A stretch of DNA of 64,000 bases from an uncultured bacterium (lineage in GTDB: Bacteria > Omnitrophota > Omnitrophia > Omnitrophales > Aquincolibacteriaceae): assembly GCA_964385615.1 (NCBI GenBank), contig CAYLPP010000008.1:31150-95149 (forward strand), read 5' to 3'. Under the pieces are notes generated by a model. It did no database searches. It was given only the letters and a program-made list of their open reading frames with translations, and had not been told where the DNA came from. The position numbers and the translations under genes were made by a program. The stretch's first letter is position 1, and each line of letters begins with the position of its first letter. Shown here piece by piece: positions 1 through 63,597 of this stretch.

Positions 1-204
1 GAAGAAGTGATGGAAAAAATTCAGGGCATCCGCCTGGTCGGAATTTCATGGGGGGATGAACCGCTGGCTATGGTTGAGGATTCTTCCACTGGACGGACTT
101 ATTTTTTGAAGAAGAATCAGGAATTTCACGGCGTGAAGGTCCAGGAAATCCAGAAACAGAAAATTATCGTGACTTATGAAGGCCAGGAGGCCGAGCTGAT
201 CTGA
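1..204 (+). CDS. C-terminal fragment of a PilP/GspC-like secretin-interacting protein (5' end outside the window)
   Basis: The reading frame is open from nt 1. The C-terminal ~65 aa (IQGIRLVGIS...YFLKKNQEFHGVKVQEI...) matches the small beta-domain of PilP/GspC homology regions. Its stop overlaps the secretin start (ATGA). Confidence 0.5.
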   Translation, partial: EEVMEKIQGIRLVGISWGDEPLAMVEDSSTGRTYFLKKNQEFHGVKVQEIQKQKIIVTYEGQEAELI

Positions 205-1769
205 TGAGAAAGAAATACGCGTCATTTTTACTGGCGGTACTGCTGGCTGTTTCCGGTTTGCCGGCTTCCGTCTCCGCCGATGACGCCAATTCGCTTCCCG
301 CCCGGCTGGGGCTTGACCGCAATGCCGCGGGGCTGAATGAACGTATTACCCTGGACCTCCGCAATATGGAAATTACGGAAGCGCTTAAATTCCTCGCGCT
401 CAAAGGCAACCTCAATATGGTTATCGGCAAGAACGTGACCGGCCGTCTTTCGCTTTTCCTCACGGATGTCACGGTTGCCGATCTTTTGGAAATTATTCTT
501 CTGACGAATAACCTCGCCATCGCCAAGCAGGGCGATATTTACAACGTGATGACGGAAACGGAGTACCAGGCGCTTTACGGCAAGAAATACGCGGATGTCC
601 GGATGGCTAAGATTATGAAGCTTCGCTACGCGGTTCCAAGCCAGGTGTTTACCGTGCTTTCGGCTTCCAAAAGCGACATCGGTAAAGTAGTGATTGATGA
701 AGATTCCGCCACGCTGATTATGGTTGATACGCCTGACCGGATTGCTGAAATGGAGCGGATTGTCACTGAAATGGAAAAAGGCCAGAACATGAGGATTTTT
801 AACCTCCGGTTCGCCAAGGCGGCCGATGTTGAACTTCAATTAAAGGAAAGACTCGACGCCTTGAAGCTGGGGACGGTTAAGTCGGATGAGCGGAGCAATA
901 CTCTGGTGGTTACGGCTTTGTCCAAGAGAATGGAAGAAGTGGAGCGTATTATCCAGGCTCTGGACGAAAAGACCCGGGAAGTGCTGATTGAGGCCCGGAT
1001 TGTCCAGGTGACCCTGACGGACAGCTTTGATGCCGGGATTAACTGGCAGGAAGTGCTTCGTGACGCCGGCAATGAAATCGGCGTGGAGAAGTATATGCCG
1101 ACTTTCAGCGGGACCTTTCCTTTAAGAAGCACGGCAACCCAGTTCGGCCAGCTGGTCGTCGGCAATTCCGCGACTAACTCCTTCAGCGCCACCATGCAGT
1201 ACCTGCAGACGGTGGGGCAGACCAAAATTCTTTCCAGTCCCCGGATTACGGCCGTGAACAAGGAAGCCGCCCGCATTCTGGTAGGTACGCGCGAAGCTTT
1301 CGTAACCACGACCACAACGACCGGTCAGACCACTTCCACCACTGCTGAAAACGTGACTTTCGTTGACGTGGGTATTTCACTTGAAGTGACTCCCACGATT
1401 AATGACGACGGTTACGTTACCATGAAAATTAAACCGGAAGTTTCAAGTGTCGGGCGCACACTGGTGACTCCGACGGCTAACCAGATTCCGATTATTGATA
1501 CAACGCTGGCAGAAACCAGCGTCATGGTAAAAGACGGAACGACAATTGTGATCGGCGGGCTGCGCAAAGATCAAAAAGCCAAGACGGTCAGAAAAATTCC
1601 GATCCTCGGCAGTATTCCGATTTTGGGCGCCGCGTTCCGCGGAACACAGGAAGATCTGACGAAAGTCGAGCTCGTCGTTTTTTTGACGCCTTATGTCATT
1701 AACGGAGAAACGACTTTTACCGACCGCCAAATTCAGGACAAACAGCTCAAGCCATTTAAAGCGTATTAA
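204..1769 (+). CDS. Secretin (GspD/PilQ family) of a T2SS/T4P-like system
   Basis: It has a signal peptide (LLAVLLAVSGLPASVSA) and two Secretin_N-like domains. The C-terminal secretin signature is GTTIVIGGL...IPILGSIPILGAAFRG...VELVVFLTPYVI. Confidence 0.85.
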   Translation: MRKKYASFLLAVLLAVSGLPASVSADDANSLPARLGLDRNAAGLNERITLDLRNMEITEALKFLALKGNLNMVIGKNVTGRLSLFLTDVTVADLLEIILLTNNLAIAKQGDIYNVMTETEYQALYGKKYADVRMAKIMKLRYAVPSQVFTVLSASKSDIGKVVIDEDSATLIMVDTPDRIAEMERIVTEMEKGQNMRIFNLRFAKAADVELQLKERLDALKLGTVKSDERSNTLVVTALSKRMEEVERIIQALDEKTREVLIEARIVQVTLTDSFDAGINWQEVLRDAGNEIGVEKYMPTFSGTFPLRSTATQFGQLVVGNSATNSFSATMQYLQTVGQTKILSSPRITAVNKEAARILVGTREAFVTTTTTTGQTTSTTAENVTFVDVGISLEVTPTINDDGYVTMKIKPEVSSVGRTLVTPTANQIPIIDTTLAETSVMVKDGTTIVIGGLRKDQKAKTVRKIPILGSIPILGAAFRGTQEDLTKVELVVFLTPYVINGETTFTDRQIQDKQLKPFKAY

Positions 1770-1789
1770 ATTTTCAGGAGTCCGGCCTC

Positions 1790-2836
1790 ATGCTTAAAAA
1801 AAGCGTTTCAAATTTTATGATTTTTATTTTATCGGGCGCTGTGATTTTCGGAGCGCCGTCCGCTTTCGCGGATTCTGAAAAAGATGAATTGAAAGCGAAG
1901 GTTGATCAGCTTCAAAAAGATCTCGCCACCGTTACGGCTGACCGTGACAATGTTCTAAAACAGGCGAAGAATTTTTTGAAGGATAAAGAAGAAGCTGTTA
2001 AAAAAATGGAAGAATTAAAAAACGCGGGCGCTCAGACCGGAGTCGAAACCGACGCGGCGAAAAAGGAAATGGAAATTCTGAAGTCTGAGATCGAAAAGCT
2101 GAAAACCGCCCGAACCCAAGACGCGGAAAATTTTCAAAACGAAAAAAAGTCGCTCGAGGACAAAGTCGCCGAGCTTGAAGCCAAGTCCAACTCTCTGGCT
2201 CAGAGCATGAAAGAAAATACGCCCGAAAAAATCCGCGAGATGAACGCGGACCGCAGCCGGCTTGAAGAAGAAAATAAAAAAATGGCGGAGCGGATCATCG
2301 ATAATGAGAAGATGATGCAGGAAATGAAACGCAAGATGGTGCCGTTCGAACTTGACCGTGAAGAGATCAGTAAACTGCGCACGGAGAATAAAGAGTACGC
2401 GAAGCGGATGAAATATGTGACTGAACTTGAAAAGCGTCAGCAGCAGCTGATTAAGGAAAACGCTGAAAACCGTGAAAAACTCGAGGTTTTAAAGGCTAAA
2501 TTCAAGGAATCAGTGCCCGGGCTGGCCAAAGCGGGCCGGATTTCACAAAAAATGATGCGCGAAAACGCGGATATGCATTATAATCTGGGCACGATCTTTC
2601 TGAATAACAAACAGTACCGCGAAGCGATTCGTGAATATGAACAGGTGCTGGAGTTAAGGCCGAACGATCCGGAAACGCATTACAATCTCGGAGTGCTTTA
2701 CGACGATTATCAGCGTGACCGGGAAAAAGCGCTTTATCATTATCAGAGGTATCTGGCGATTAATCCAAAAGCGCCGGACGCTAAGAAGGTCGAATCGTAC
2801 ATTTTATCCCTGGAGCTTGAACAAAAAGTAAGGTGA
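1790..2836 (+). CDS. Secreted coiled-coil / TPR-repeat protein (possible PilF/PilW-like secretin assembly factor)
   Basis: It has a signal peptide with no lipobox Cys, a long K/E-rich coiled-coil, and C-terminal TPR-like repeats (HYNLGTIFLNNKQYREAIREYEQVLELRPNDPETHYNLGVLY...). It lies directly 3' of the secretin. Confidence 0.5.
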   Translation: MLKKSVSNFMIFILSGAVIFGAPSAFADSEKDELKAKVDQLQKDLATVTADRDNVLKQAKNFLKDKEEAVKKMEELKNAGAQTGVETDAAKKEMEILKSEIEKLKTARTQDAENFQNEKKSLEDKVAELEAKSNSLAQSMKENTPEKIREMNADRSRLEEENKKMAERIIDNEKMMQEMKRKMVPFELDREEISKLRTENKEYAKRMKYVTELEKRQQQLIKENAENREKLEVLKAKFKESVPGLAKAGRISQKMMRENADMHYNLGTIFLNNKQYREAIREYEQVLELRPNDPETHYNLGVLYDDYQRDREKALYHYQRYLAINPKAPDAKKVESYILSLELEQKVR

Positions 2837-2861
2837 GAGTGATTCTCACGAAAAAAAATAA

Positions 2862-5800
2862 GTGATAAAACCTGCGCAACGAGGCGGAAAAAAAACAGGG
2901 GTTTTCCTCCAAGCAGGATTTTTGTCTCTTTTTTTTCTGTTTTTCCTCGCGACATCTTCCTTCGCTGAAATCCGCCAGTGGGATTTTGATAATCCCGAAG
3001 ACTATCAATTCGATCAAAACCAAATTAAAATTAAAGACGGTAAAGCAAGTCTGATTCCCGTCGCGCCTTATCGCGATGCCGGCGCTCAATCTTTTCAGCG
3101 CGGTCAGTTTGATTTGAACACGACTGTCGACCGCGGAACTTTGGAACTTTCACTTCGCGGTCCGCAGGAAACGGCAGGCCCCGAACTTCCGTCGCCGGTC
3201 GGTAACCGCGAACCTGGACTCGCCGCGCTTTGGCATCTTGATGAACCGAACGGAACCAATCTTTTGGATTCTGTGGGGAGGACGGTCGCGAAAGCAAGTG
3301 ACGCCGAAGTTGTCAGCGGCCAAACCGGATTTGGTTACGCGCGTCTTTTTGACGGCGAAAAAAGTTTTGTTTTTATTCCGCATTATGAAACGCTCAGCCT
3401 CCGCGGTCCTTTTTCAATTGAAACCTGGATTCGCCCGCTCGCGGTAAAATCTTCCAAACCGCAAACGATTGTTTCCCGCTGGCAGACGGTTGGGGCCCAG
3501 CGCGGATTCGCGCTTCAAATTAATACGGAGGGGAAACTGGATTTTCTGGTTTCCGCGGACGGCGCGACCGTGACTCACCAATTAGGAAATACTGTTTTAA
3601 GCGATGGGGTCTGGCAGCACGTCACCGCGGTTTATACCGGCAGTGACCTCCGCATTTATGTGAACGGAATTTTAGACAGCGCTCCGCTGGCTTTTTCCGG
3701 GCCTGTTTATTTTGCCGACAACCCGGTTTATCTGGGGGCTCTCGTAGACAATCGCGTCGATCAGTTCTATCAGGGTGTCATTGATGAGGTCGCTATTTAT
3801 CAAAGACCGCTGACCGAAACGGAAACTCTGACTCATTTCGGAAATATTCAGGGCCTCGCGGGGCTCTGGCATCTGAATGAGCGCGGGGGAGTTCTGGCGG
3901 ATGCTTCCGGGTATGGTCAAAACGGGAATGTTTCCGGGGATGTCCGCTACGAGACTGAAGGCCGGATGGGAACAGGCTTGGGGTTTTCAGGCCATAATGC
4001 TTATGCTCAGATTGCCGGTTCCAGCCGGTTGGCTCCTCAGGGGCAGATCACTCTTGAAGCCTGGATCAAGCCGGAAGTTTTTCCAGGCCTAGGCCGGCGC
4101 GCTTCGGTCCTTTCTATATATGAAGAACCCGCCCCGGGCGGAGCTCCGGGAGGCGGGGAGATTTCTCTTTCAGTTTTAGGGCCGGATGGGCGGATTGCCG
4201 CTTACGCTTCCAAGCTTCAGCCCGCCGAAGTCCGGGGCCGGATTTCCCTGACTCCCGGTGTCTGGCAGCATGTGGCTGTGACCTGGAGCGAAGGGCGTGT
4301 TCAAATCTACAATAACGGAATTCGTGACACGTCATCGGCCTATACCGGGTCACTTGATTTTGTTTCCAAAGCGGCAATGCGTTTGGGCACGGATGCTTCA
4401 GGAACCAGTGCCTTTCAGGGGAGTATTGATGAAGTTGCGGTTTATCGCCGCGCGCGCACCGGTTCTGAAATAGCGGCTTCAGCCGGACTTTTCGCGCCTT
4501 CAGGAATTTTCACCTCAGAGGTTAAGGATGCCGGCGGAGTTTCCCCGTGGAAGACTGTGGAGTGGAAACTTCCTCTCGACTACGGTTTGGCTAATAACGG
4601 ACAGGAAGCCGGGCTTCTGCACCTTTTTCATCTGGATGACCGGGAAGGCTCCGGGATCACCAACTCCAAAGGAGAAATTCAGGCAAGCCCTATCGGAACG
4701 TATCCGGTTCCTGGCATTTTCGGGCAAGCCCGCTGGTTCGCGGGTAAAGGGTATGACAAGATTTTGTCACAGAAAGATTTTCCCGCTCTCTCTACTTTCA
4801 GCATCAGCTGTTGGTTTGAATTTGCTTCCGGTCAGGCCGGGCTGAGCGACCGCATTTTCAGCATCGGTGACGGGAACCCGACGGTCTTCCGTGCCGGGGA
4901 CGGCCGGATGCATGTTCAGATGCAAGGCGCCCGTGAAATTATCGGCGACCGGATTCTGGGTGACAGCCGGTGGCATCATCTGGCACTGACGGCTGACGGC
5001 CGGAATCTCTTCTTATATATAGATGGTCTTCTGGACGGGGTTTCTCCTTTTATGACGGCCTCCGCTCAGAGCCCGCTTGTGCTTGGCAATTTAAAGAGCA
5101 CGGATACCTTTCAGGGCGCGATTGATGAATTTCTTTTTTACAATTATCCGCTCGACCGTGACACCGTGCTTCAGCAATTCCTGCGCGGGCAGATGGATGC
5201 CAAAATGCTGGTGCGCAGTTCCGACAGCAAAGATTTTTCGAGTGCGGCCTGGCGCGGTCCTCAAGGGGTGAAGCTGGAAGAAGAGCCGGCTATGTTCACC
5301 TCAGCGCTCTGGCATTTTGATGAAAAAGTTTTCCGCGGTCAGCCTGGGGAAATTCAGGATGCAGGACATTTCGCCAATCACGGAACGGTCTTCGGTAAAA
5401 TCTCTTCTTTCTCAGACTCGATTTCCGGAAGCGCGGTTCGTTTTAACGGGAGTACGGACTTTATCCGCGTTACGGACACCGACAGCCTGCACCCGGATAA
5501 ATTTACCATTTCCGCCTGGGTTCGCCCGGATGAGATGGCCGAAGGCCAGGTGACTCTGATCGATAAACAGTTTAAAGCGGGCGCGCCGGTTTTTTCCTCA
5601 TTTGCTTTGGATTTGATCGCGGGGAACCGTCTCGCTTTGCGTTTGGGCCGGCCCGGCGGGTACCGTCAGATTGAAACCGGGCGCGATGGAGAGGTTGCCG
5701 CGGGCAAGTGGAATCATGTCGCCGCGGTTTTTGACCGCAAAGAAGTCCGGCTGTATATCAACGGTAAAAAAGTGAAGACGGCTGATTTCCGTGAGCCTGT

Positions 5801-8800
5801 TCCTTACGATGACGGCCCTCTTTATTTCGGCCGGTACGCTTCTTCCGAAGCGCGGTACTTTCGCGGAGCTCTGGATGAAGTTCATCTGATGAACACACCG
5901 GCTACGGACGCCGAGATTGAATCCCGTTTTGCTCAGGCGGATCCTGGAAATTTTTTCCGGCCGTCCGTAGAAACGCCCGCGGGAGTTTCGCCCGCCCGTT
6001 ATTTCCAGTATCGTGTTTTTCTTAGCACGCGTCAGCCTTTTGCGAGTCCGGCAGTTTCCGAAGTTAACCTTCGGGGCAGTTCATTTCCCGCGGGGCGTCC
6101 GGCCGTTTCTCCCCGGAGCGGAATTTCCTACGCTGAAATTTCAAGTTTCACCGATAAGAAGGGGGCGGGAAACGCGGGGCATGTGACTTATCAGATTTCT
6201 CCGGACGGTTCGAACTGGTTTTTTCATAACGGACGGCGGTGGGTGGTCGCGGCCGGTTCTAATGAATCCAATACCTCCGATCAGATTCAGACCCAGGTGA
6301 ATAGTTTCGCAAAAGAGGTTGGGATGGGCAGTTTTTACTTCCGCGCGTTTCTTCAATCGCCGACCGGCATGGAGCCTGCCGAAATTGAAGATGTCGAAGT
6401 GGAATATCTCCCGAATAAAGTCACGGTGACTTCGCCTAATGGCGGTGAGGCGCTTCTGACCGGAACCTCGCAGGTTATCCGCTGGAATACCGCGGGTGAA
6501 ATGAAGAAAGTCTCTATCGAATATTCCAAGGACGGGTTTCATAATGATTTTCATGAAATCGCCAAAGGGATCGACAATACGGGAAGTTTTGAATGGAAAG
6601 TTCCGGATGACCTCTCGACTTCCGTGAAGGTTCGGGTCATGGACAGCCTCGACCCGCGGATTTACGATATGTCGGATATTTCTTTCCGCGTTACGGGAAA
6701 GTTTGAGTTGATCACTCCGAATTCAGAAGAACGCTGGATGGCCGGAAGTCCGCAGAAGATCGTTTGGAGAACGCAGGGGAAGATTCCTGAAGTTAAACTG
6801 GATTACTCCACGGACGGTTTTGAGAAAACGGTTTTTCCGATCGTTGATTCCGTTAAAAATGAAGGCTCCTTTGAGTGGAAAGTTCCTGACCATCTTTCGA
6901 AGTTCGTCAAAGTCCGTGTTTCGGATGTCCGTGATCCCGAGGTTTTTGACAAGTCCAACGATTCTTTTTCAATTACCGGAGGTTTAGGGATTCTTTCTCC
7001 TCAGCTGGGAACCCGCTGGATCACGGGAAGTCAGCAGGAAATACGCTGGCAGTCGGTTGGAACCATTCCTCTGGTGAATATCGAGTACTTTACTTCCGGG
7101 CGGGGAGATTGGGTCAGGATCGCGGAGAATTTTGAAAGCCGGGGCAGTTTTATGTGGCAGGTTCCGGATGATATTGACGGCCAGGTTCAGATCCGCGTGA
7201 TTGACGCTTCCGACTTGAGAGTTTCCGCTGAGTCTGAACCTTTCGCTATTGTCGGCGGGTTGCGCCTGCTTAATCCGAAAGGCGGGGAGCAGTGGACGGC
7301 CGGAACACGGCGCAAGATTGCCTGGGAGACCATTGGCAGTATTCCCGCGGTAAATCTTGAGTATAAGTCCGGAGCGGATACCGCCTGGCAGACGATTGAG
7401 AAAAACACCGCCAACACCGGGTCTTATGTCTGGGAAGTTCCGGCTTCTTTAAATGGCGCTTTAACGGTTCGGGTTGTTGACGCGCGTGATCCTTTTACCG
7501 AAGCCGTGCACGCTTCGGCTTCCAGCGTGATTCCCGGTTTTCATCTTCAGGCGCCTAACGGCGGTGAGGAATGGAAGATCGGCACCGAACAGCAGATTAT
7601 CTGGGAAACCACGGGCGAATCATCCCAGGTCCGGCTTGAATATTCCAAGGACGGTTTCAAAAGTGATATTCATGAAATTATCGCCGCCGCTTCCAATCTG
7701 GGGAGTTTTACCTGGACGGTTCCGGATGATGCTTCGCAAAATGTCTGGATCCGGGTTTCTGATTCAAATAATTCCACGGCCCAGTCTTCTTCCAACGCGT
7801 CTTTCCGGATTTACGGCGGTTTTGAAATTCAAATTCCCAAAGGCGGAGAGAAATTTGAAGTTGGAAGTCAGGCGACGTTCGTCTGGGATACTTTGGGAAC
7901 TCTTCCCAATGTCCGGCTGGAATATTCTCATGATGATTTCGCCAAAGATTCGCGTCTGATCGAAGCCTCCGCGCCGAATGAAGGCCGTTATACCTGGACG
8001 GTTCCGGATGATATCGGGGACGGGTACCGCCTGCGGATTTCAGATACGCGTGATCCTAAAACCGAAGCTTATTCCAAAGAACCTTTCGCGGTCATGGGGA
8101 ATTTCCATCTGATTTATCCGGTCGGCGGGGAGGATTTGATTGCCGGAACGGTCGCGCGGATCGCGTGGCGCGGAGCCGGTTCGGTTCCTGTGGTCCGGAT
8201 CGATTACTCTGAAGATGATTTTCAGAAAAGCTTCAACACGATTACCGATAAAGCCCCGAATAACGGCGCTTATGACTGGACGGTCCCGAATTTGATCGGG
8301 CGCCAGTTCAAAATCCGTGTTTGGGACCCGTCTCAGCCTGATTCTGTGGATGTGATGAAACAGTCCGCGCGGATCGTTGGCGGTTTCCGGCTGATGGAGC
8401 CCAACGGCGGGGAAGTTCTTTATGTGGGCGACCGTTCCATGATCAAGTGGGAAACGTCCGGCACTCTGCCCCGCGTCAAACTGGAGCTTTCCACGGATAA
8501 TTTTACCCGGGATATTTCGGTGATCGCCGATTCCTATCCGAATAACGGTCAATATGACTGGCTGGTTCCTGACGCGCCTTCCGGCAGGTACAAAGTCCGG
8601 GTTTCGGATCCTCGTGACGTAACCGCGTTTGACATTTCAAATGCTGATTTCCTGATCCGTTCCCGGTTCACGCTTCAGTCGCCCAACGGCGGTGAAGGCT
8701 GGGCGGTCGGTGAGAAAAAAGATATCCGCTGGCAGACTTCGGCCGCTGTTTCCCAAGTCCGCCTGGATTTCACCACCAACGATTTTCAAAGTGTTTCCGT

Positions 8801-48382: not shown

Positions 48383-48591
48383 AAAACATTATCGTTATTG
48401 CCATTATGTTTATCGGAACGCTGGGGCCTTCCATGGTTATCGCGGCCGTGGGTTTTGCCAGCATCATGGCCCTGGGCCGTAATCCGTCGGCTTCACCCAA
48501 GATTATGCTGGCTATGATTATCGCTCTAATTTTCGCGGAAGCGATCGCCATTATCGCTCTGCTCGTCAGTTTTCAGGTGTTTACGCCATGA
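48379..48591 (+). CDS. atpE: F-type ATPase c subunit (proteolipid), H+-type
   Basis: A TTG start overlaps the atpC stop (TTGA). It forms a two-helix hairpin: Gly/Ala-rich helix 1, RNP polar loop (GRNPSASPK), and a conserved carboxylate in helix 2 (LIFAEAIAI). No Na+-site Q/ES/T residues are present. Confidence 0.75.
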   Translation: MKNIIVIAIMFIGTLGPSMVIAAVGFASIMALGRNPSASPKIMLAMIIALIFAEAIAIIALLVSFQVFTP

Positions 48592-51747: not shown

Positions 51748-51842
51748 TTCTTATACAGAGATTGACAAAGTTATTAAAAGATTAACTACGCAAAAAAACA
51801 GGAACTGTTCCATGGGTGTGTCACTAACCAGAGGAATTGTGC

Positions 51843-55123
<3,281 letters not shown>

Positions 55124-55621: not shown

Positions 55622-57340
55622 GTGAGTGACCGGATTTCTGATGAACTGCTGAAAAAGAACCTGCTCAAAGAAGATCAGGTTAAAGAAGCGGAGGCGGAGC
55701 AGAAAAAGACCGGCGAACCGCTCGGAAAGATTCTTCTCCGGAAAGGTTATGTCCGGGAAGAAGATCTCGCCCGCGCGCTGGCCGAACAGTTTAAAATGCC
55801 GTTTGTCCGTTTCGGAAAATTTTTGATTGCTAAAGACGTTCTTGAGAAAGTTCCTGCCAAGCTGGCAATGCACTACAAGATGATGCCGGTGCGCGCCTCC
55901 GAAACCACCATGACGGTTGCCATTTCAGACCCCCAGGATGTCCGTGTTCTTGACGATATCCGCATCGCTTTGAAATCCAAATATAAAGTTGAGGCTGTTC
56001 TCGCGACTGAAACTGACATTCTGAATTCCATCCGGAAATATTACGGGCTGGGCGCTGAGACGGTCGAAGGCATTCTGCAGGCGGAGGATAAGTCCAGTAT
56101 TCCCGTGCCTGAAGCTGAAAATGAAGTCGAGGATATTGAAAAGCTGGCAGGAGATGCTTCGATTGTAAAACTGGTCAATCAGGTTTTGCTTGAAGCCTAC
56201 AAGAAACGGGCGACGGATATTCATATTGAGCCGTACCGCAGTAAACTTCAGCTTCGCTACCGCGTGGACGGCATGCTTTATCCCGCGGAAGTTCCGGATA
56301 ATATTAAACGGTTTTTGCCCGCGATTATTTCGCGCATTAAAATTATGTCGAACCTGAATATCGTGGAACGGCGTCTGCCTCAAGACGGCCGGGCTTCGAT
56401 TAAAGTCGGCGCTCAGAAAATGGATTTGCGTATCTCCGTTCTTCCGACTCCGCACGGGGAAAGCGTGGTTATCCGCATTCTGCCGACTTCCATGCTGATC
56501 CGTCTTTCCGACTTGGGCATGGATCAGTCTCAGCAGGATATTCTGGAAACCTTGATTCATAAACCTTACGGCATTATTTTTGTCACAGGTCCTACGGGCG
56601 CGGGTAAATCAACAACGCTTTACGCCTGCCTTTCCACCATCAATAAACCTGAAAATAAGATCATTACGATCGAAGATCCGATTGAGTATGAGTTGGAAGG
56701 CATCACTCAGATTCAGGTCATGCCCCAGATCGGGCTGACTTTCGCGCAAGGCCTTCGGAGTATGCTTCGCCATGACCCTGACGTGATGATGGTCGGGGAA
56801 GTCCGTGACTTTGAAACGGCCGAATTGGCCATCCGTATCGCGCTGACCGGCCATCTGGTTTTTTCAACCCTGCACACCAACGACGCGTCCAGCGCCGTAA
56901 CGCGCCTGATCGATATGGGGATTGATCCTTTCCTGGTGGTTTCCTCCGTGGAGTGTTTTATCGCTCAGCGCCTGATCCGCATGATCTGTGATAAGTGTAA
57001 AAAGGAAGATACGCGCACCATTCTTCCTGAGCTCAAAAAAGAAATTATGGAATGCCAGCGCAATACCAAAGATTTTAAACTCTGGATCGGCGAAGGCTGT
57101 GAGCACTGTAATTTTTCCGGCTTCAAGGGCCGTACGGGGATTCATGAATTCCTTCTGCTGACTCCGCCCATGAAAGACGCCATTATGAAAAAAGCTTCAG
57201 CCGACGAAATTAAAAAATTCGCGCTGGCTAACGGAATGCGGACTCTTAGGCAGTCCGGGTGGGACAAAGTTATTTTAGGGCAGACAACGATTGATGAAAT
57301 CATGCGTGTAACTCAGGTCGCCGGCGAAGAAGAAAATTAG
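55622..57340 (+). CDS. gspE: Type II secretion / type IV pilus assembly ATPase (GspE/PilB family) with an MshEN-like N-terminal domain
   Basis: A GTG start follows a GGGGGA RBS. The Walker A is GPTGAGKSTTLYA, with Asp and His boxes. The C-terminal tetracysteine is CDKCKK...CEHCNFSGFKGRTGIHE. The second MshEN motif (PLGKILLRKGYVREEDLARALAEQF) is intact and the first is degenerate. Confidence 0.9.
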   Translation: MSDRISDELLKKNLLKEDQVKEAEAEQKKTGEPLGKILLRKGYVREEDLARALAEQFKMPFVRFGKFLIAKDVLEKVPAKLAMHYKMMPVRASETTMTVAISDPQDVRVLDDIRIALKSKYKVEAVLATETDILNSIRKYYGLGAETVEGILQAEDKSSIPVPEAENEVEDIEKLAGDASIVKLVNQVLLEAYKKRATDIHIEPYRSKLQLRYRVDGMLYPAEVPDNIKRFLPAIISRIKIMSNLNIVERRLPQDGRASIKVGAQKMDLRISVLPTPHGESVVIRILPTSMLIRLSDLGMDQSQQDILETLIHKPYGIIFVTGPTGAGKSTTLYACLSTINKPENKIITIEDPIEYELEGITQIQVMPQIGLTFAQGLRSMLRHDPDVMMVGEVRDFETAELAIRIALTGHLVFSTLHTNDASSAVTRLIDMGIDPFLVVSSVECFIAQRLIRMICDKCKKEDTRTILPELKKEIMECQRNTKDFKLWIGEGCEHCNFSGFKGRTGIHEFLLLTPPMKDAIMKKASADEIKKFALANGMRTLRQSGWDKVILGQTTIDEIMRVTQVAGEEEN

Positions 57341-57347
57341 GTGAGCC

Positions 57348-58595
57348 ATGAGATTTATCTATAAGGCGAAAAAAGGGCCGTCCGAAGTCGTTGAAGGCGA
57401 GCTGGATGCCGAAAACGAAGAAGCGGTTCTTGGAAAAATTTCAGCCTGGGGTCTGATTCCCATCCGGATTTATCCTGCTTCCGCTGAAGAAGCCCAGAGG
57501 ATTTTAGGTTCAACCGCCTCGGAGCGGGCCGAAATAAAAGCTGAAAACCGTAACCGGGTCACGGTTCCTTATAAAGAAATCAATATCTTTACGCGCCAGT
57601 TTGCCATCCTTCTTAAAGCCAGCGTGCCTCTGCTGAGGATTTTTGAAATCCTTCAAAGCCAGAGCCGGAATCCAAAATTTAAAACAGTGCTGAAAGAAAT
57701 TCAGGATACCCTGCGCCAGGGCACGGCTCTTTCGGAAGCGCTTTCTCATTATCCCCGGATTTTTTCGCAAGTTTACATCAGCATGGTTCACGCGGGCGAG
57801 GTTAGCGGTACTCTGGATCAGGTTTTACTCCAGCTTTCAGAATTTGCTGAGAGGGAAGCCGAAGTCCGCGCGCGGGTTCAAAACGCTTTTGTGTACCCGC
57901 TTTTCCTTCTTGCGATGGGCATCGGCACGGTATTCGTTCTGCTGACTTTTGTCATGCCCCGCATGATCAGCCTTTTCGCGGATCTGGGCACGGAGCTTCC
58001 AGGCCCGACCCGTGTGATTATTGCTATTAGCAATTTTTGTCAATCTTACTGGGTTTTTATGATCGCGGGGACGGCGGTTTTAATTTTTCTGCTCCGCTCG
58101 AAGGGGTTGAGCACGGCTCAAAAAAGAAGCGTGGATAAAACCGTTATTCGTTTGCCCATTCTGGGAGCCTTAATGGAAAAAGCGGAAGCTTCAAAATTTC
58201 TCCGTTCTCTGGAACTTCTTTATGAACATGGGATCCCGCTTTATCAGGCGGTCGCGGTCGCGAACCGGACGGTTTCAAATTTGGCGGTGCGGGATGAGCT
58301 GGAAAAAGTTCCGGCCCGTCTGGAAGGAGGCGCGACGCTGGCCCGAAGCCTGGAGGAAGTTCCCTACATTTCTAAATTTGTAACGCATATGGTCGCGGTG
58401 GGCGAAGAGTCAGGGCAATTGGGAACGGCCGTGCGTGAAACCGCTTCTTTTTATGAACAGGAAACCAATCAGATGATCAAAGTCGCGACCTCTTTGCTTG
58501 AACCCCTCATGATTCTTGGAATTGGTCTGGTTGTCGGGTTTATCGTGATCGCGATGCTTCTGCCGATTTTCGAGATCCATGTCCTCGCTCAATAA
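57348..58595 (+). CDS. gspF: Inner-membrane platform protein (GspF/PilC family)
   Basis: It has two T2SSF-type repeats and three TM segments. Its position after the ATPase is conserved. Confidence 0.85.
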   Translation: MRFIYKAKKGPSEVVEGELDAENEEAVLGKISAWGLIPIRIYPASAEEAQRILGSTASERAEIKAENRNRVTVPYKEINIFTRQFAILLKASVPLLRIFEILQSQSRNPKFKTVLKEIQDTLRQGTALSEALSHYPRIFSQVYISMVHAGEVSGTLDQVLLQLSEFAEREAEVRARVQNAFVYPLFLLAMGIGTVFVLLTFVMPRMISLFADLGTELPGPTRVIIAISNFCQSYWVFMIAGTAVLIFLLRSKGLSTAQKRSVDKTVIRLPILGALMEKAEASKFLRSLELLYEHGIPLYQAVAVANRTVSNLAVRDELEKVPARLEGGATLARSLEEVPYISKFVTHMVAVGEESGQLGTAVRETASFYEQETNQMIKVATSLLEPLMILGIGLVVGFIVIAMLLPIFEIHVLAQ

Positions 58596-58986
58596 TAAAG
58601 GATTTACTCTCGTAGAGGTTTTGACCGCGGTGACTGTGCTGGCGGTCGGGTTGGTGCTTGTGGTCCAGGCGATGGGACGTACTCAGCAGGCCGTGCGTCT
58701 TTCCGAAAACCTCACCGCTGCTTCTCATATTGCTGAAGAGCAAATCACCCGCCTGAAACTGGCCGACCGCGAGCGGGGAAAACCCGGCTATGGTGAAGAC
58801 GGCAAGCAGGAGTACCTGGGCCGGGAGTTTAGCTGGGCCAGCAGCGTTGAGCCTTTTACACGCGCGGACGTGCATGAAGAAGACCAGATCAGTCAGATTT
58901 CCGCCGAGGTTAAATGGCAGGAGGCCGGTGTTGAAAAAAATCTGCGCGCGGTTTCACTGGTTACGCACCGGAAGAGCTTTTCATGA
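58579..58986 (+). CDS. Minor pseudopilin (GspH/GspI-like) with type IV prepilin leader
   Basis: NKG|FTLVEVLTAVTVLAVGLVL has G at -1, F at +1, E at +5 and a hydrophobic N-terminal helix. Confidence 0.75.
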   Translation: MSSLNNKGFTLVEVLTAVTVLAVGLVLVVQAMGRTQQAVRLSENLTAASHIAEEQITRLKLADRERGKPGYGEDGKQEYLGREFSWASSVEPFTRADVHEEDQISQISAEVKWQEAGVEKNLRAVSLVTHRKSFS

Positions 58987-59651
58987 AGAATCCCCGCGGT
59001 TTTACCCTAATCGAGACTCTTCTTGCGGTCACTCTTTTTATGATTGTCATGGTGTCCGCCTACAGCGTTTTTCATATGGGAATTCAGATATGGAAGCGGG
59101 TCACTGGCGCGCTGCCCGTGCAGAGATTGGCGCTGACCGCGCTGGAAAGAATGGGGGAGGATATTCGATCCATCCAGCCTATCCAGCCGGCGCCCAAAGG
59201 GGTTGTGATCGTTCAGAAGAAGCATGATTTTAAATTCCAGGGATCTGGAGAATCGTTTCTCATGTCCGCGATTCTGCCCGTTCAGGATTCTTCGGGCGCG
59301 GATTCTTTTCAAGCCGGAGGTCTTGGGTACGCTTTTAAATCTTCAGCCGGTGAACTTTGCCGGATGACACAGAACGCGTCTCAGCTTTACGCCGGCGAAG
59401 AACCCTCCTGCAGGGTGATGCTTTCGGGGATTCAGAAACTTCATTTTCAGTATTGGATTGAAAATCCAATCACTAAAAGTTTTTCCTGGTACGATGCCTG
59501 GGATACTTCCGAAAGTCTTCCTCAGGCCTTCCGCGTGGAAATGGAAATTAAAGTCAAGAGCCGGAAAAACGCGGAACCGCTCCGGTTTGAGCGTACTTTC
59601 TGGGTACCTTCAGGCGATCAAGCGATGACCGTAGATTCGGGGGCCGCATGA
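58983..59651 (+). CDS. Minor pseudopilin (GspJ-like) with prepilin leader
   Basis: PRG|FTLIETLLAVTLFMIVMV has E at +5. It is 222 aa and overlaps its neighbours by 4 nt. Confidence 0.7.
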   Translation: MKNPRGFTLIETLLAVTLFMIVMVSAYSVFHMGIQIWKRVTGALPVQRLALTALERMGEDIRSIQPIQPAPKGVVIVQKKHDFKFQGSGESFLMSAILPVQDSSGADSFQAGGLGYAFKSSAGELCRMTQNASQLYAGEEPSCRVMLSGIQKLHFQYWIENPITKSFSWYDAWDTSESLPQAFRVEMEIKVKSRKNAEPLRFERTFWVPSGDQAMTVDSGAA

Positions 59652-60661
59652 ATCTTACCGCGGGCCGGCAGCAGGGCAGTGTGCTGGTGGCCGTACTTTG
59701 GCTATTGGCCATGATGGGTGTTTTCGCCATGGCCGTGACACGGCAGGCTTCGCAGGAACTTCTTTTCGGCCAATGGCTGAGGGACCGGGTGCTTGCCAGA
59801 AATCTGGCTGAAGCCGGTATTGAACGCGCGTTAATCGAACTTCGCCACGATAAGTTTAAAGTTTTTGACTCGTTTCAGGAAACCTGGGGATCGAACCCGA
59901 AAGCGTTCAGCCATATTTCGCTCCAGGCAGGAACTTATTCAGTGATCTGTGAACAGGATGGAGAAACGCTCTACGGCGCCTGTGATGAATCCGGACGGAT
60001 TAACATTAATAAAGCTTCTCCGGAAATTCTGAAAAATTTGATGATGGCGGCGGATTCCGGCATCGGCGAGGATAAAGCTTCGGCGATTGCTGACGCGATC
60101 GAAGACTGGCGGGATGGAAACGATGACCGCTCCGATCATGGCGCGGAATCCTCCGAGTATCATTCACTGAAGAAACCTTATGAAGCGCGCAACGGAGATC
60201 TGGAATCAGTCGAAGAACTTAATATGGTGATGGGGATGACGCCTGAACTTTTCCGGAAGATCCGGCCGTACGTGACTGTTTACACGGATGGGAGGATTAA
60301 TTTTAATACGGCGCCCAAGGCGGTTTTCAGGGCCCTTGGGCTTTCAGAAGTTCTGGCCGGAAGGCTGGTCGATTTCCGCAAAGGCGCGGACGGCATGACC
60401 GGCACTCTGGACGATGAGGTGTTTCAGGATACGGCCCAGATTCTCCCGGCTTTAAGCGCGGGAGGTAACTTTTCGGGAGAAGATTACTCTCAGCTTTCCA
60501 ACGCGCTCAGCCTGGGTTCGGCATCGGTCACTTCCGGTGTTTTTAGAGTTAATGCTATGGGGAGCTTAAACCGTGAGGCCCGAAAGACCGATACATGGAT
60601 AAGCTGTGTCATGAAACGTGACGGAACCATTCTAAGCTGGAGAGAAGGCCGTAATGCCTAA
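59648..60661 (+). CDS. gspK: Minor pseudopilin GspK-like
   Basis: The N-terminus is QQGSVLVAVLWLLAMMGVFAMAV. GspK characteristically lacks Glu+5 and starts G-(S/V)-(A/V)-L-L-x-V-L-W. It is ~337 aa, with helix-hairpin-helix-like segments. Confidence 0.7.
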   Translation: MNLTAGRQQGSVLVAVLWLLAMMGVFAMAVTRQASQELLFGQWLRDRVLARNLAEAGIERALIELRHDKFKVFDSFQETWGSNPKAFSHISLQAGTYSVICEQDGETLYGACDESGRININKASPEILKNLMMAADSGIGEDKASAIADAIEDWRDGNDDRSDHGAESSEYHSLKKPYEARNGDLESVEELNMVMGMTPELFRKIRPYVTVYTDGRINFNTAPKAVFRALGLSEVLAGRLVDFRKGADGMTGTLDDEVFQDTAQILPALSAGGNFSGEDYSQLSNALSLGSASVTSGVFRVNAMGSLNREARKTDTWISCVMKRDGTILSWREGRNA

Positions 60662-62219
60662 GATGGCGATGCCCAAGTTGAGTCTGCCGAAATTTCGGAT
60701 GCCTCCTTTGTCTTTTAAAGGAGGCAAACTGCCCGGATTTTTTTCTCTGGGGCCAGTCGGTAAGACGGCGCTGGCCATTGAAATCGGTGAAGACTGGCTC
60801 AAGCTCGCGGCCGCCGCTGAAACGGGGAAAAACGAAAGAAAAATTCTTTGGACCGCCTGCGAACCTTCGCGGGATATTGATGCTTTTTCGCTTGCTTTAA
60901 AAGTCGCGCAGATCGTGAAATCTCATCATATGAAACCTTCACGTGTTCTGGTTTCATTTCCATCCCGGCATTTGACGACGCGCATTCTTTCACTGCCCTC
61001 CACGGATCCCGTGGAAATCGCCGATATCGTTTCGCTTCAGGCCGTAAAGCAAACTCCTTACGCGCGCGAAGAAATCACGGCCGGGTATCATAAAATTGAC
61101 AGTGATGCTTCAGGCTATTCCCGGATTTTTCTCGCGATCGCGCACCGCGACCAGCCTTCCCAGTATTTCCGCACGGCAGAAATGGCGTTTCTTCTCCCCG
61201 ATCAAATCGTTCCGGCCGTTGAAGGCCTGCGATTTTGGACAAAAATCGTTTTTGAGAGTGAGGCGGAAAAATCACAGGAACCGGTATTGATTCTTGAAGT
61301 GGACGAAGCGGTGACGGAACTGCTTGTGGTTGCCGGAAATAATATGATTTTTACGCGCGGTCTGGGGATTGGGTCCAAACAGCTTCAGGAGCAAGCCGGG
61401 ACGATTGAGCCGGAATTCCTGCGGGAAGTCCAACGGTCTCTGGAATCGGATGAAACCCTGAAACAGACTCGAATTTCCAGGATCATTGTGACGGGTGTTT
61501 CCCAGGCTTCTAAAACGGCCGCTGCCATTTTAAGCCGTGAAATGGATATTCCCTGCGAAGTCCTGCCGTGTTTTGAGCCGGCCAGGAAATCTTTTGCCGA
61601 TGACGCGGCTGAAAGTATTTCCAAAAGCCCGGTTTCTTTTGCCGCGCTGACCGGACTCCTTCTTTCGCCGGAAATTTCTGAAATCAATTTGATGCCGGAC
61701 GATGTCCGCCTGCGTAAAGGCCTTGAGCAGAGAGCGCGCGAGCTGGCTTTCATGGGAACGCTTCTGCTGACCATTGTCATGCTGGGATCTTTAATCGGTT
61801 TCGAGAAAATTTACAAACGGACTGTGTATCTGGATTATTTGAAAAAAGAATACGCGGCGGTGCGCGCTCAGGCGGAAGATGTGGAACGGCTGATCGGGAA
61901 AATTAAACTGGCGGCTGAGCAGACGGGCGGAAAAACAGACTTTCAGGAAGTTTTGTTTGATATCAATACCGTGCTTCCAGACAGCCTGATTCTGACTTCC
62001 ATTGATTACAATGACCGGGAAAAAACGGTGCTGATCCGCGGAACGGCGCGTGAAATGTCTTCGGTGTTTCAGTTTCTTTCAACGCTGGAATCCACGCCCA
62101 GTCTTGAGCAGGTAAAGACGAGGAATGTGACCAAGCGTAAAGCGGGGGAGCAGGAAGTCTCGGAATTCGAAATCGCGGCGGTTTTGGCCGCGGAGAATTC
62201 CGAGGGAGGCAAGCCATGA
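60654..62219 (+). CDS. GspL-like / PilM-PilN fusion (cytoplasmic actin-like domain + TM + periplasmic domain)
   Basis: It has a ~350-aa cytoplasmic domain and a single TM (LAFMGTLLLTIVMLGSLIGF). The periplasmic PilN/GspL-C-like domain includes ...VLFDINTVLPDSLILTSIDYNDREKTVLIRGTA... Its position precedes the PilO/GspM-like gene. Confidence 0.65.
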   Translation: MPKMAMPKLSLPKFRMPPLSFKGGKLPGFFSLGPVGKTALAIEIGEDWLKLAAAAETGKNERKILWTACEPSRDIDAFSLALKVAQIVKSHHMKPSRVLVSFPSRHLTTRILSLPSTDPVEIADIVSLQAVKQTPYAREEITAGYHKIDSDASGYSRIFLAIAHRDQPSQYFRTAEMAFLLPDQIVPAVEGLRFWTKIVFESEAEKSQEPVLILEVDEAVTELLVVAGNNMIFTRGLGIGSKQLQEQAGTIEPEFLREVQRSLESDETLKQTRISRIIVTGVSQASKTAAAILSREMDIPCEVLPCFEPARKSFADDAAESISKSPVSFAALTGLLLSPEISEINLMPDDVRLRKGLEQRARELAFMGTLLLTIVMLGSLIGFEKIYKRTVYLDYLKKEYAAVRAQAEDVERLIGKIKLAAEQTGGKTDFQEVLFDINTVLPDSLILTSIDYNDREKTVLIRGTAREMSSVFQFLSTLESTPSLEQVKTRNVTKRKAGEQEVSEFEIAAVLAAENSEGGKP

Positions 62220-62764
62220 ACCCGAAAGTTATTTTTGACAAGCTTAAACCCCGGGAAAAGAAAATCCTGTACGTGGTTCTCGCGCTCTTGGTGCTTTTGC
62301 TTGGTTATCATGGTGTCTGGACGCCGATGACCGAAAAGATCGGCACGCTGGATGATGAGATTTTTACGATGGAGATGAAACTGCGTAAAGCCAAAATCCT
62401 GATCCGCCAATCGGCTGAGGTCCGGGCGGAGACCGAAAAGTACGTGAATTTAGATCAGCTTAACGCGGTTTCTGACGAAGAAGAAACCGCCAGGCTTCTG
62501 AGCCTTATTGAAGAAACAGCGCGTAAAACCGGATGCTCACTTTCAGATGTGAAGCCGGAGGCCGTCAAGACCGATAAATGGACCAAGCGTTTTCAGGTTG
62601 AGCTTTACACGGAATCCAGCATGGAACAGCTGATTTCTTTTGTTTATGAGCTGGAACATTCGCCTCAGATTTTAAAAATCGAACGGGTTACGGCGTCGCC
62701 GAAAGAAGAAAAGTCGCCCACCCTTCGATCTCAGCTGACAGTCGTCAGAACAGTTACAACATGA
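62216..62764 (+). CDS. GspM / PilO-like bitopic membrane protein
   Basis: It has a short cytoplasmic N-terminus, a TM (ILYVVLALLVLLLGY), a coiled-coil and a periplasmic alpha/beta domain. It is 182 aa and overlaps the preceding gene by 4 nt. Confidence 0.6.
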   Translation: MNPKVIFDKLKPREKKILYVVLALLVLLLGYHGVWTPMTEKIGTLDDEIFTMEMKLRKAKILIRQSAEVRAETEKYVNLDQLNAVSDEEETARLLSLIEETARKTGCSLSDVKPEAVKTDKWTKRFQVELYTESSMEQLISFVYELEHSPQILKIERVTASPKEEKSPTLRSQLTVVRTVTT

Positions 62765-62780
62765 TTAACCGGAGGTTTTT

Positions 62781-63218
62781 ATGACAGCAATGTTTACAGA
62801 CAGAAATCGCCAGAGAGGGTTTACCCTGATTGAGATTCTCCTGGTCGTGATTATTATCGGGATTCTGGTTTCCCTGGTTGCGCCTCGTCTGGCCGGGCGT
62901 TCTGAAGAAGCCCGTAAACAGGCGGCCAAAGCGGATATCGACGGAGGTATCGCGCTGGCAGTGGATATGTATGAAGTCGACAATGGCCGGTACCCGTCTC
63001 AGCTTGAAGACCTGATTGCTAAACCCGGTGACGCCCCCAACTGGAAAGGCCCTTATATGAAAAAAGGCGTTCCCAAGGATCCCTGGGGAAGCGGCTACAT
63101 TTACCGCCGTCCCGGCAATCACAATACGGAAAGCTATGATCTGTCTTCTCCCGGTCCCGATAAGCAGGCGGGCGGGGAAGATGACATTGTCAACTGGGCA
63201 GGAACCGGTAAAAGCTGA
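62781..63218 (+). CDS. gspG: Major pseudopilin GspG
   Basis: It aligns near end-to-end with canonical GspG: RGFTLIEILLVVIIIGILVSLVAPRL...AKADIDGGIALAVDMYEVDNGRYPSQLEDLI...PKDPWGSGYIYRRPG...GPDKQAGGEDDIVNW. Confidence 0.9.
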   Translation: MTAMFTDRNRQRGFTLIEILLVVIIIGILVSLVAPRLAGRSEEARKQAAKADIDGGIALAVDMYEVDNGRYPSQLEDLIAKPGDAPNWKGPYMKKGVPKDPWGSGYIYRRPGNHNTESYDLSSPGPDKQAGGEDDIVNWAGTGKS

Positions 63219-63219
63219 C

Positions 63220-63597
63220 ATGACACCTAAAACTGTGCTGGTGATTGATGATGAAGTGCTGATCGGCGAGCTTGTCTGCGATTATCTTGCGTCTCTGGGG
63301 TTTAAGGCTTTTGCCGCTCAATCCGCGGTGGAAGGAATCAGTTTAGTTAAAAAAGAAAAACCGGATCTGATTCTTCTGGACGTTCTGATGCCTCAGGTTG
63401 GCGGGATCGAATGTTTGAAGGAAATTAAAATTGAACGTCCGGAGAGTATTGTGGTGATGGTGACGGCGGTTCATGATGAGAACACGGCCAAGCAGGCGAT
63501 CACAAGCGGGGCTTACGATTACATCACGAAGCCGATTGATTTTCAGTATTTAAAAGAAAACGTTCTCGCCCGGGTTTTCCCGGATTTTATTCCCTAA
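63220..63597 (+). CDS. Single-domain response regulator (CheY-like REC only)
   Basis: VLVIDDEVLIGELV...PDLILLDVLMPQVGGIECL...VVMVTAVHDE...YITKP carries the acid pocket DD, the phospho-acceptor D in LLDVLMP, and T/K. The ORF-track version from 63136 overlaps gspG, so the ATG at 63220 is preferred. Confidence 0.8.
   Translation: MTPKTVLVIDDEVLIGELVCDYLASLGFKAFAAQSAVEGISLVKKEKPDLILLDVLMPQVGGIECLKEIKIERPESIVVMVTAVHDENTAKQAITSGAYDYITKPIDFQYLKENVLARVFPDFIP

Follow-up and report, generated by a model that had tools for sequence, protein, structure and literature searches.

Two giant immunoglobulin-repeat genes, a c-di-GMP-type riboswitch and a secretin–pseudopilus gene set in one Omnitrophota gene array: a candidate surface-fibre system

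Introduction

The Omnitrophota are uncultivated, ultrasmall and probably host-dependent bacteria, and how their cells hold on to others is an open question. Among the ‘symbiosis’ traits proposed for them earlier are giant proteins, pilus-like machines and an unusual ATPase. All three were found together in the stretch of DNA described here (64,000 nt; GenBank assembly GCA_964385615.1, contig CAYLPP010000008.1, positions 31,150–95,149, forward strand; hereafter the window), which comes from an uncultured member of the Aquincolibacteriaceae. The window is best explained as one co-oriented ‘attachment’ supercluster made up of a secretin module, two giant genes (GIANT1 and GIANT2) with small partners, an F-type ATPase and an inner-membrane pseudopilus machine. 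It is read here, with a probability of about 0.5, as a surface-fibre system governed by cyclic di-GMP (c-di-GMP), in which Sec would export the giants, the secretin and pseudopilus machine encoded beside them would carry them over the outer membrane, and the giants would then serve in attachment.

Neighbourhoods of this general kind are already published for Omnitrophota, and the window is an instance of them. A conserved locus resembling a type II secretion system (T2SS) was described 5' of Omnitrophota giants, with gspD, gspE, gspF, rcpC, a Rotamase_2 peptidyl-prolyl isomerase (PPIase) and prepilin-like genes, and with pilZ on the 3' side (West-Roberts 2023, bioRxiv 10.1101/2023.11.21.568195). 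Of 14 giants with 80,000 residues or more, 13 have secretion or pilus genes at their flanks (bioRxiv 10.64898/2026.06.07.730766). The window belongs to the same phylum and likewise has gspD, gspE and gspF homologues and small prepilin-like genes near very long open reading frames (ORFs), for which attachment or predation was proposed; c-di-GMP is involved in both cases, through PilZ and GGDEF in the published locus. The West-Roberts giants exceed 30,000 residues and carry many transmembrane (TM) regions and SecA_DEAD, whereas those of the window are 5,422 and 7,545 residues long, have a signal peptide only, and consist of laminin G-like (LamG) domains and immunoglobulin-like (Ig-like) repeats. 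No rcpC, Rotamase_2 PPIase, pilZ or SecA_DEAD was present in any window protein, and the published locus lies upstream of its giant, whereas the window giants stand between the secretin and the platform genes.

In every class, and in 57 of 66 contigs, Seymour et al. (2023; PMC10066038) found a non-respiratory F-type ATPase cluster no more than 10 kb from type 4a pilus (T4aP) clusters. They also found giant ORFs of more than 20 kb to be common, some with Laminin_G_3 domains, and one giant ORF to be up-regulated in attached V. archaeovorus cells (PMC10066038). The window resembles these loci in its F-type ATPase operon near a PilB/GspE–PilC/GspF–pilin cluster, with LamG giants in the same genomes. 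Seymour et al. treated the giants and the ATPase/T4aP loci as separate traits; the window joins all three in one co-oriented array. It thus differs from the published loci in its signal-peptide-only Ig-repeat giants, in the lack of rcpC, PPIase and pilZ, in this joining of three ‘symbiosis’ traits, and in three small proteins (unk5, unk8 and unk10) and a riboswitch; these partners and the riboswitch have not been described previously.

Four further systems were also compared. With the canonical T2SS the window shares a secretin with N-domains, a tetracysteine GspE, GspF, GspG, GspI/J/K-like proteins and GspM. It differs in having no GspH, a PilM–PilN fusion for GspL, a weak GspC, an MshEN domain on the ATPase and a split gene order with GspG last; most components score below equivalog level, and its putative cargo exceeds typical characterised substrates several-fold in size. 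The mannose-sensitive haemagglutinin (MSHA) pilus likewise has an MshEN c-di-GMP motif on its ATPase and a secretin followed by a TPR protein, and in relatives of the window the secretin is preceded by an ExeA/MshM-like AAA_22 protein. Unlike that system, the window has a secretin below the MshL equivalog cutoff and pilins that are GspG/I/J/K-like, not MshA–D. To our knowledge, no MSHA operon contains an extra stand-alone MshEN protein. RTX/LapA adhesins of the type I secretion system (T1SS) are proteins of hundreds of kDa with dozens of Ig-like repeats, a ligand-binding head and c-di-GMP-governed display. LapA-type adhesins have no Sec signal peptide and depend on a C-terminal T1SS signal, RTX repeats and adjacent ABC/MFP/TolC genes, whereas the window giants carry signal peptides at the N-terminus and lie beside a secretin gene, and the window lacks RTX and T1SS genes. 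In Firmicutes, c-di-GMP riboswitches precede adhesin or pilus genes, as in C. difficile (PMC6200980) and before B. thuringiensis CbpA (PMC7423583), where, as here, the 5' leader of the gene for a large surface adhesin holds a GEMM-I aptamer; attachment is thereby tied to c-di-GMP, in the window by prediction. The window differs from those cases in that the bacterium belongs to another phylum and is an ultrasmall diderm, the aptamer abuts a small partner gene coupled to a 7,545-residue ORF, and about half of the aptamer family is of the GGC variant.

Gene order in the window and in relatives

Every substantial gene of the 64-kb window lay on the + strand, in agreement with the initial annotation of the sequence. 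Intergenic gaps were at most 156 nt, and many genes overlapped by 1–17 nt. The PilP/GspC-like fragment, secretin and TPR gene that the initial annotation had placed before GIANT1 were recovered there by Pfam, with GIANT1 starting 25 nt past the end of the TPR gene. Five genes and the riboswitch separate GIANT1 from GIANT2. The genes from GspE to GspG were likewise found at the positions assigned to them beyond GIANT2, but they do not adjoin it: the 8.5 kb between GIANT2 and GspE holds unk10, six F-type ATPase genes and the genes for a stand-alone MshEN protein and a PAS histidine kinase. The secretin block and the GspE block are separated by about 15 further genes and an RNA element. The genes listed initially were thus all present, but the list was incomplete, as it named neither the ATPase operon nor the two-component genes, nor the riboswitch. 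All named homologues of the secretin belonged to Candidatus Omnitrophica/Omnitrophota.

Relatives were collected by a secretin-alignment scan of GTDB species representatives, which gave 80 loci (cited by L number), and were annotated by BLASTP against the window proteins. An ORF was counted as large at ≥1,000 residues, or at ≥700 residues when cut by the locus end, and at least 5 kb had to be available. By this count, 31 of 47 species loci had a large ORF 3' of the secretin, against 2 of 44 that had one 5' of it. The order GspC-like, secretin, TPR was nearly universal among the 80 loci (full-length GspC-like orthologues, 215–270 residues) and was usually followed by one to three unk5 paralogues, an ORF of 135–160 residues (unk8 or an analogue) and the large ORF. 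The combination of secretin and large ORF was spread across a neighbour-joining tree of the secretins. GIANT1-type orthologues directly 3' of the TPR gene were confined to a close clade (L001–L009 and L085; ≥65% secretin identity), and GIANT2 orthologues were found beside distant secretins that are 46–47% identical to that of the window (L021, 41% identity over 1,996 residues; L018, 38% over 980 residues). Giant-fibre unit and secretin module form an old and widespread association, and the synteny check proposed with the initial annotation speaks against an incidental insertion.

On the GspE side, three independent contigs with unk10 homologues had the order GIANT2 (at least 6,700 residues), unk10, epsilon, c, b-delta, alpha, gamma, a response regulator or nothing, beta, MshEN, GspE, GspF and the pseudopilins. 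The atpD/MshEN and MshEN/GspE junctions of L083 are each a 4-nt overlap. Elsewhere the machine was contiguous, as C-D-TPR-E-F-G-J-K-MN-M in L013 and as atpD-E-F-(J)-K-MN-M-C-D-TPR in L071 and L082. In L018, E-F...C-D-TPR are contiguous and are followed by unk5, unk8 and GIANT2. A contiguous machine with the giants elsewhere, which the initial annotation had named as the mark of an incidental insertion, was thus seen in part: L013, L071 and L082 have the machine contiguous with no giant inside it and none within 10 kb, whereas in L018 the giant comes after the contiguous machine. Because contiguous machines exist in other lineages, the ‘split’ order to which the initial annotation had attached meaning is a lineage-specific rearrangement and not a design feature, and the old association of giants and secretin is not in itself evidence that the splitting matters.

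The giant proteins

Both giants had been described as signal-peptide proteins, and each was found to have a single N-terminal hydrophobic, signal-like segment and no further TM segments. GIANT1 consists of the signal peptide, four lectin-like Laminin_G_3 (LamG) domains within residues 1–1150, about 40 Ig-like repeats of ~94 residues, and a 420-residue C-terminus without a family. GIANT2 consists of the signal peptide, an N-terminal head of ~450 residues without a Pfam family, about 68 Ig-like repeats of ~96 residues, and a helical C-terminus. The repeats of both match the Kre9_KNH Ig-like family and have a common W-47-W-10-W signature, and the two repeat arrays align in many registers at 32% identity over ~4,000 residues. 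Pfam and other family scans detected no RTX, autotransporter (type V secretion), T1SS, type IX secretion, sortase or PEP-CTERM modules in the giants.

An Ig-like domain is ~4 nm long, so that arrays of ~40 and ~68 such domains give folded rods of roughly 150–300 nm. The scale of ~2,000 nm proposed initially would hold for an unfolded chain only. The bacterial periplasm is tens of nanometres wide.

The head of GIANT2 had homologues in 47 representative clusters at E ≤ 1e-10 and in 378 at E ≤ 1e-3; in many weaker matches the alignment is confined to the Ig-like part of the query. The stronger ones mostly start ~20–70 residues from the N-terminus, i.e., just past the signal peptide. Within GIANT2 (30500–43200), a super-repeat of 2,058 nt that spans seven Ig-like domains is present in tandem, in about seven copies with 61–81% DNA identity, indicating recent expansion. 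GC skew falls to about zero across GIANT2, owing to its Thr/Ser/Asn-rich composition.

Cyclic di-GMP elements

An Rfam scan of the window returned one element, a c-di-GMP-I-GGC aptamer (64.9 bits; gathering score 59). It fills the gap between the gene for a multi-pass membrane protein and unk8. Its last base abuts the ATG at 23855, which is therefore likely to be the true start of unk8, and the unk8 stop overlaps the GIANT2 start by 4 nt. A purine-rich candidate ribosome-binding stretch lies inside the 3' helix strands of the aptamer; this placement suggests that the riboswitch acts, as an ON or an OFF switch, by translational control of unk8–GIANT2.

The canonical c-di-GMP-I family (RF01051, gathering score 35) was matched in L044, L034 and L085 at 54.8–62.2 bits. 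A covariance model was then built from four copies, and 85 sources were scanned with it. This gave 23 matches in 22 of the 85 sources (20 of the 80 species loci, L085 and the window), all on the strand of the secretin. In 14 of the 20 species loci the aptamer was followed by a long unk5-like ORF and/or an ORF of ~140 residues, and then by a giant ORF; five others were cut by the locus end, and in the remaining one (L073) it stood ahead of the GspC-like/secretin/TPR operon, at 499–597. L046 has two tandem aptamers (16804–16911 and 16948–17053) ahead of its giant operon. In an alignment of 22 aptamer sequences, 99.5% of cells were paired and 15 of 19 pairs had compensatory changes. None of 500 shuffles reached the observed covariation values, and no slid register came close.

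The core position after the 3' strand of P1a (GG[G/A]CGCAAAG), read as A47 of the Vc2 aptamer, was G in about half of the sequences and A in about half; the window has G (GGC variant). Both forms share one genomic context. They may have a common ligand or may reflect a shift of specificity within one regulon.

The machine itself has MshEN domains with a c-di-GMP motif in two proteins. The NCBIfam c-di-GMP motif NF053729 (cutoff 38) was matched by the stand-alone MshEN protein at 71.6 bits and by the N-terminus of GspE at 52.3 bits. By eye, both 24-residue motifs are nearly intact in the stand-alone protein, and motif I of the GspE domain (55622–55800) is degenerate; c-di-GMP sensing may have been delegated from GspE to the small protein. 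With a riboswitch before unk8–GIANT2 and MshEN at GspE, fibre and machine would come under one messenger, a regulatory link that is predicted from sequence.

No riboswitch is mentioned in West-Roberts 2023, Seymour 2023 or bioRxiv 10.64898/2026.06.07.730766, and a riboswitch-led giant operon is apparently a modest, previously unreported addition to these accounts. As an 82-nt c-di-GMP-type aptamer conserved before the giant-fibre operon across the phylum, it offers a regulatory handle that can be tested in vitro without a culture.

The secretin and pseudopilus machine

The secretin scored below the NCBIfam cutoffs of all three candidate families (PilQ, 252 bits, cutoff 284; GspD, 244, cutoff 351; MshL, TIGR02519, 193, cutoff 250). 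The GspC/PilP-like ORF is partial and gave weak matches only. The TPR protein that follows the secretin had weak Tgl/PilW pilotin-like NCBIfam matches and no lipobox cysteine in its sequence. Tandem secretin pairs occur in L028, L030, L044, L050, L052, L054, L058, L059, L061, L062, L064, L067 and L076–L079; the two copies are usually split by a TPR protein of 560–1,250 residues (378 in L067) and form separate clades in a rough tree.

On the inner-membrane side, GspG exceeded its equivalog cutoff (TIGR01710, 131.2 vs 88.85 bits) and is the last gene of the pseudopilus block, as first annotated. Three minor pseudopilins had also been called; I-, J- and K-like proteins were confirmed, while the H-like assignment was dropped, no GspH-like gene being seen among the window genes. 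Their Pfam scores for T2SSK_1st (81.9 bits) and T2SSJ (33.2 bits) exceed the gathering scores, and their best NCBIfam matches are gspI, gspJ and GspK, each just under its cutoff. The gene called GspL-like is present, but proved to be a PilM–PilN fusion occupying the GspL place; GspL is absent from the window. GspM was supported by Pfam T2SSM (40.2 bits; gathering score 27.8) and fell below NCBIfam GspM (46 bits; cutoff 60). GspF scored 344 bits (cutoff 424). GspE has a tetracysteine motif (CxxC...CxxC, read from its sequence) and scored 580 bits both as GspE (cutoff 630) and as PilB (cutoff 676). T2SS models were best or co-best for GspE, GspF, GspI, GspJ, GspK and GspM. Pfam and NCBIfam scans of the window genes matched neither a prepilin peptidase (GspO/PilD) nor PilT, in line with the initial annotation, and the window has no PilA-type major pilin (Myxococcus-type PilA model NF041775, 27.8 bits; cutoff 400), its sole major subunit being of the GspG type. 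The machine can be described as a T2SS/T4aP hybrid with MSHA-like c-di-GMP gating, which would work like a T2SS pseudopilus machine and is a tentative member of the Gsp family.

The same scores bear on the strongest alternative, in which the machine builds an extended type 4a-like or MSHA-like filament for attachment or surface motility, possibly aided by the ATPase, and the giants are separate adhesins that leave by another export route and are only co-regulated by c-di-GMP. The secretin is marginally better as PilQ than as GspD, the GspE and PilB models are tied, PilM–PilN and PilO-like proteins stand in for GspL, an MshEN-bearing, c-di-GMP-gated ATPase is a hallmark of the MSHA pilus, and the machine lacks giants in some loci. 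Seymour et al., who name such clusters T4aP, connect both the clusters and the F-type ATPase with attachment and motility (PMC10066038). Against a filament stand the GspG-type major subunit, above its equivalog cutoff, the minor subunits that are best matched by GspI, GspJ and GspK, and the lack of PilT among the window genes. Nor was a T1SS, type V or type IX module found in or beside the giants that could provide the other route, and the giants are tied to the secretin gene and not to pilin genes. This alternative deserves serious weight and is, on this evidence, unlikely.

The F-type ATPase

The ATPase genes run epsilon (N-domain only), c (carboxylate kept), b-delta fusion, alpha, gamma and beta, with the PAS histidine kinase between gamma and beta; no a subunit was found in the window. 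The slot of the kinase is taken by a response regulator in one relative and by nothing in another. Pairs of histidine kinase and response regulator occur 5' of the GspC-like gene in many other loci.

The end of atpD is 499 nt from the start of GspE, and only the 426-nt MshEN gene lies between. The F-type ATPase genes are thus within the 10 kb of the pseudopilus cluster by which Seymour et al. delimited their loci. Adjacency of atpD and GspE was also found in L071, L082, L083 and a JGI contig, atpD standing directly 5' of GspE in the deep-branching L071/L082 clade. In L019 (261–9306), an ExeA-like AAA protein, the GspC-like gene and the secretin follow immediately on an operon for a V/A-type ATPase (A, B, D, I, c). 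The recurrence of a rotary ATPase near the module (L071/L082, L019) points to a link of some kind.

Alpha and beta matched canonical bacterial F1 chains in PDB at 450–490 bits, and beta scored 450–489 bits to canonical F1 beta vs 347 bits to the beta chain of the Mycoplasma G1-ATPase. Seymour et al. place the alpha subunit with Mycoplasma type-2/3 ATPases, whereas by PDB score both window chains are much closer to canonical F1 than to the Mycoplasma G1-ATPase; from such scores, membership of the window ATPase in the ‘symbiotic’ clade of Seymour et al. cannot be confirmed.

A canonical-looking ATPase is also what would be expected if the array were inherited gene order without mechanistic coupling, small streamlined genomes keeping envelope genes in long co-oriented arrays and the ATPase being the ATP synthase of the cell. 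Epsilon, c and b-delta are present, the block order varies by lineage (contiguous in L013, L071, L082 and L018, split in the window), and promoter and terminator scans gave no more sites than shuffled sequence, so that transcription units were not defined by them. Drift alone would hardly produce the asymmetry of 31/47 vs 2/44 across secretins that are 42–50% identical. The unit of riboswitch, small ORF(s) and giant keeps to the secretin side, and the L073 aptamer stands before the secretin operon. The V/A-type ATPase in the equivalent neighbourhood of L019 and the 57 of 66 co-locations of ATPase and pilus genes in Seymour et al. (PMC10066038) argue in the same direction, and mere inheritance of gene order is considered improbable.

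Proposed mechanism

If the giants are cargo of the machine, they would cross the inner membrane by Sec via their N-terminal signal peptides and fold in the periplasm as thin beaded rods. The GspG pseudopilus would then pass them through the co-encoded secretin, as in type II secretion, and they would end as surface fibres whose head domains attach to a host or prey cell. Coordination by c-di-GMP would be exerted at two points, the riboswitch controlling translation of unk8–GIANT2 and MshEN coupling the messenger to the GspE ATPase. If the secretin does pass these fibres, type II secretion would have to be credited with a higher size limit than has been assumed.

Several observations hold the probability of this export reading down to the value given above. 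Giants of 600–800 kDa are several-fold above typical characterised T2SS substrates. The C-termini of GIANT1 and GIANT2 are mutually dissimilar, and no common terminal ‘signal’ domain was found. Most parts of the machine fall below NCBIfam equivalog cutoffs, with T2SS and T4aP models tied, and the same machine occurs with no giant within 10 kb in L013, L071, L082, L016 and L061. Structure models of unk5 and unk10 matched generic folds only, and c-di-GMP is a putative ligand for the GGC aptamer variant. Clusters of this kind are classed as type 4a pili by Seymour et al. (PMC10066038).

That the giants instead form an envelope or periplasmic ‘coat’, tethered at the inner membrane through unk10 with the secretin unused, would fit the C-terminal TM helix and periplasmic Ig-like and helical domains of unk10, which is always 3' of the giant, and the naming of V. 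archaeovorus for a proposed giant-protein coat (PMC10066038), but it is the least probable of the alternatives, since rods of the estimated length far exceed the width of the periplasm, the LamG lectin heads suggest external ligands, and the window giants have no TM helices, vs 42 predicted in the V. archaeovorus protein (PMC10066038).

The export reading can be carried further, to a dedicated exporter or display device for 600–800 kDa Ig-repeat fibres, which would be by far the largest known type II-like cargo. The fibre would be threaded through the secretin or docked at it via unk5, unk8 and unk10, with c-di-GMP switching at two levels (the riboswitch on the fibre operon, MshEN on the ATPase) and the rotary ATPase supplying or sensing energy locally, in a self-contained host-attachment organelle of ultrasmall episymbionts. 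Taken as a whole, this fuller version is doubtful.

Feature coordinates and accessory genes

Features of the window are listed in Table 1.

Table 1. Genes and RNA element of the window (positions 1 to 63,597 covered), with the evidence for each assignment.
Feature	Position	Strand	Evidence or description
GspC/PilP-like gene, 3' end, cut by window edge	1-201	+	Weak Pfam T2SSB/T2SSC matches
Outer-membrane secretin (GspD/PilQ-like)	204-1769	+	Pfam Secretin 164 bits, Secretin_N
Coiled-coil and C-terminal TPR protein, signal peptide	1790-2836	+	Pfam TPR matches
GIANT1, 5,422 aa, 597 kDa	2862-19130	+	
PQQ_2/BamB-like beta-propeller protein	19287-20552	+	Pfam PQQ_2 137 bits
unk5	20587-21207	+	Signal peptide, small 8-stranded beta-barrel, disordered acidic tail
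Secreted class-A beta-lactamase/PBP-like serine hydrolase	21290-22255	+	Pfam Beta-lactamase2 115 bits
Multi-pass membrane protein, 491 aa, no family	22275-23750	+	Hydrophobic segments
c-di-GMP-I riboswitch aptamer, GGC variant, 82 nt	23773-23854	+	Rfam RF03167
unk8, small signal-peptide protein	23855-24439	+	Sequence; no family
GIANT2, 7,545 aa, 796 kDa	24436-47073	+	
unk10	47098-48066	+	Signal peptide, Ig-like sandwich, three-helix bundle, C-terminal TM helix
F-type ATPase epsilon	48137-48382	+	Pfam
F-type ATPase c	48379-48591	+	Pfam
F-type ATPase b-delta fusion	48602-49351	+	Pfam
F-type ATPase alpha	49367-50833	+	Pfam
F-type ATPase gamma	50833-51696	+	Pfam
Membrane PAS histidine kinase, between gamma and beta	51837-53711	+	Pfam PAS, HisKA, HATPase_c
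F-type ATPase beta (atpD)	53714-55123	+	Pfam
Stand-alone MshEN (c-di-GMP-binding family) protein	55182-55607	+	Pfam MshEN; NF053729
GspE/PilB-type assembly ATPase, N-terminal MshEN domain	55622-57340	+	Pfam T2SSE 437 bits
GspF/PilC platform protein	57348-58595	+	Pfam T2SSF 202 bits
GspI-like minor pseudopilin	58579-58986	+	N_methyl motif, T2SSI
GspJ-like minor pseudopilin	58983-59651	+	N_methyl motif, T2SSJ
GspK-like minor pseudopilin	59648-60661	+	N_methyl motif, T2SSK_1st 81.9 bits
PilM-PilN fusion (GspL analogue)	60654-62219	+	Pfam PilN, PilM_2
GspM/PilO	62216-62764	+	Pfam T2SSM, PilO
Major pseudopilin GspG	62781-63218	+	Pfam T2SSG 101 bits; NCBIfam gspG equivalog
Single-domain response regulator	63220-63597	+	Pfam Response_reg 95 bits

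With unk5, unk8 and unk10, interaction modelling has well-defined small partners to start from. Most Omnitrophota loci have one to three unk5 paralogues (150–480 residues) 3' of the TPR gene, and the family has a near-invariant C-terminal KKKKGWF after a disordered acidic linker; this tail may be a tag for sorting or docking. unk8 matched no family; its homologues, or other ORFs of 135–160 residues, stand directly before the giant in relatives.

Three further genes lie between GIANT1 and the riboswitch. The membrane protein had no Pfam or NCBIfam match, and its residues 392–441 weakly resemble designed TPR chains of PDB; that it may be a glycosyltransferase for the Ser/Thr-rich GIANT2 is a speculative lead. 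The serine hydrolase has an S-x-x-K motif (SLMK) in its sequence and is conserved in L085; it could act on the peptidoglycan of the cell itself or of a host. The beta-propeller protein scored 114 bits as NCBIfam BamB (cutoff 285) and is kept 3' of GIANT1 in L085.

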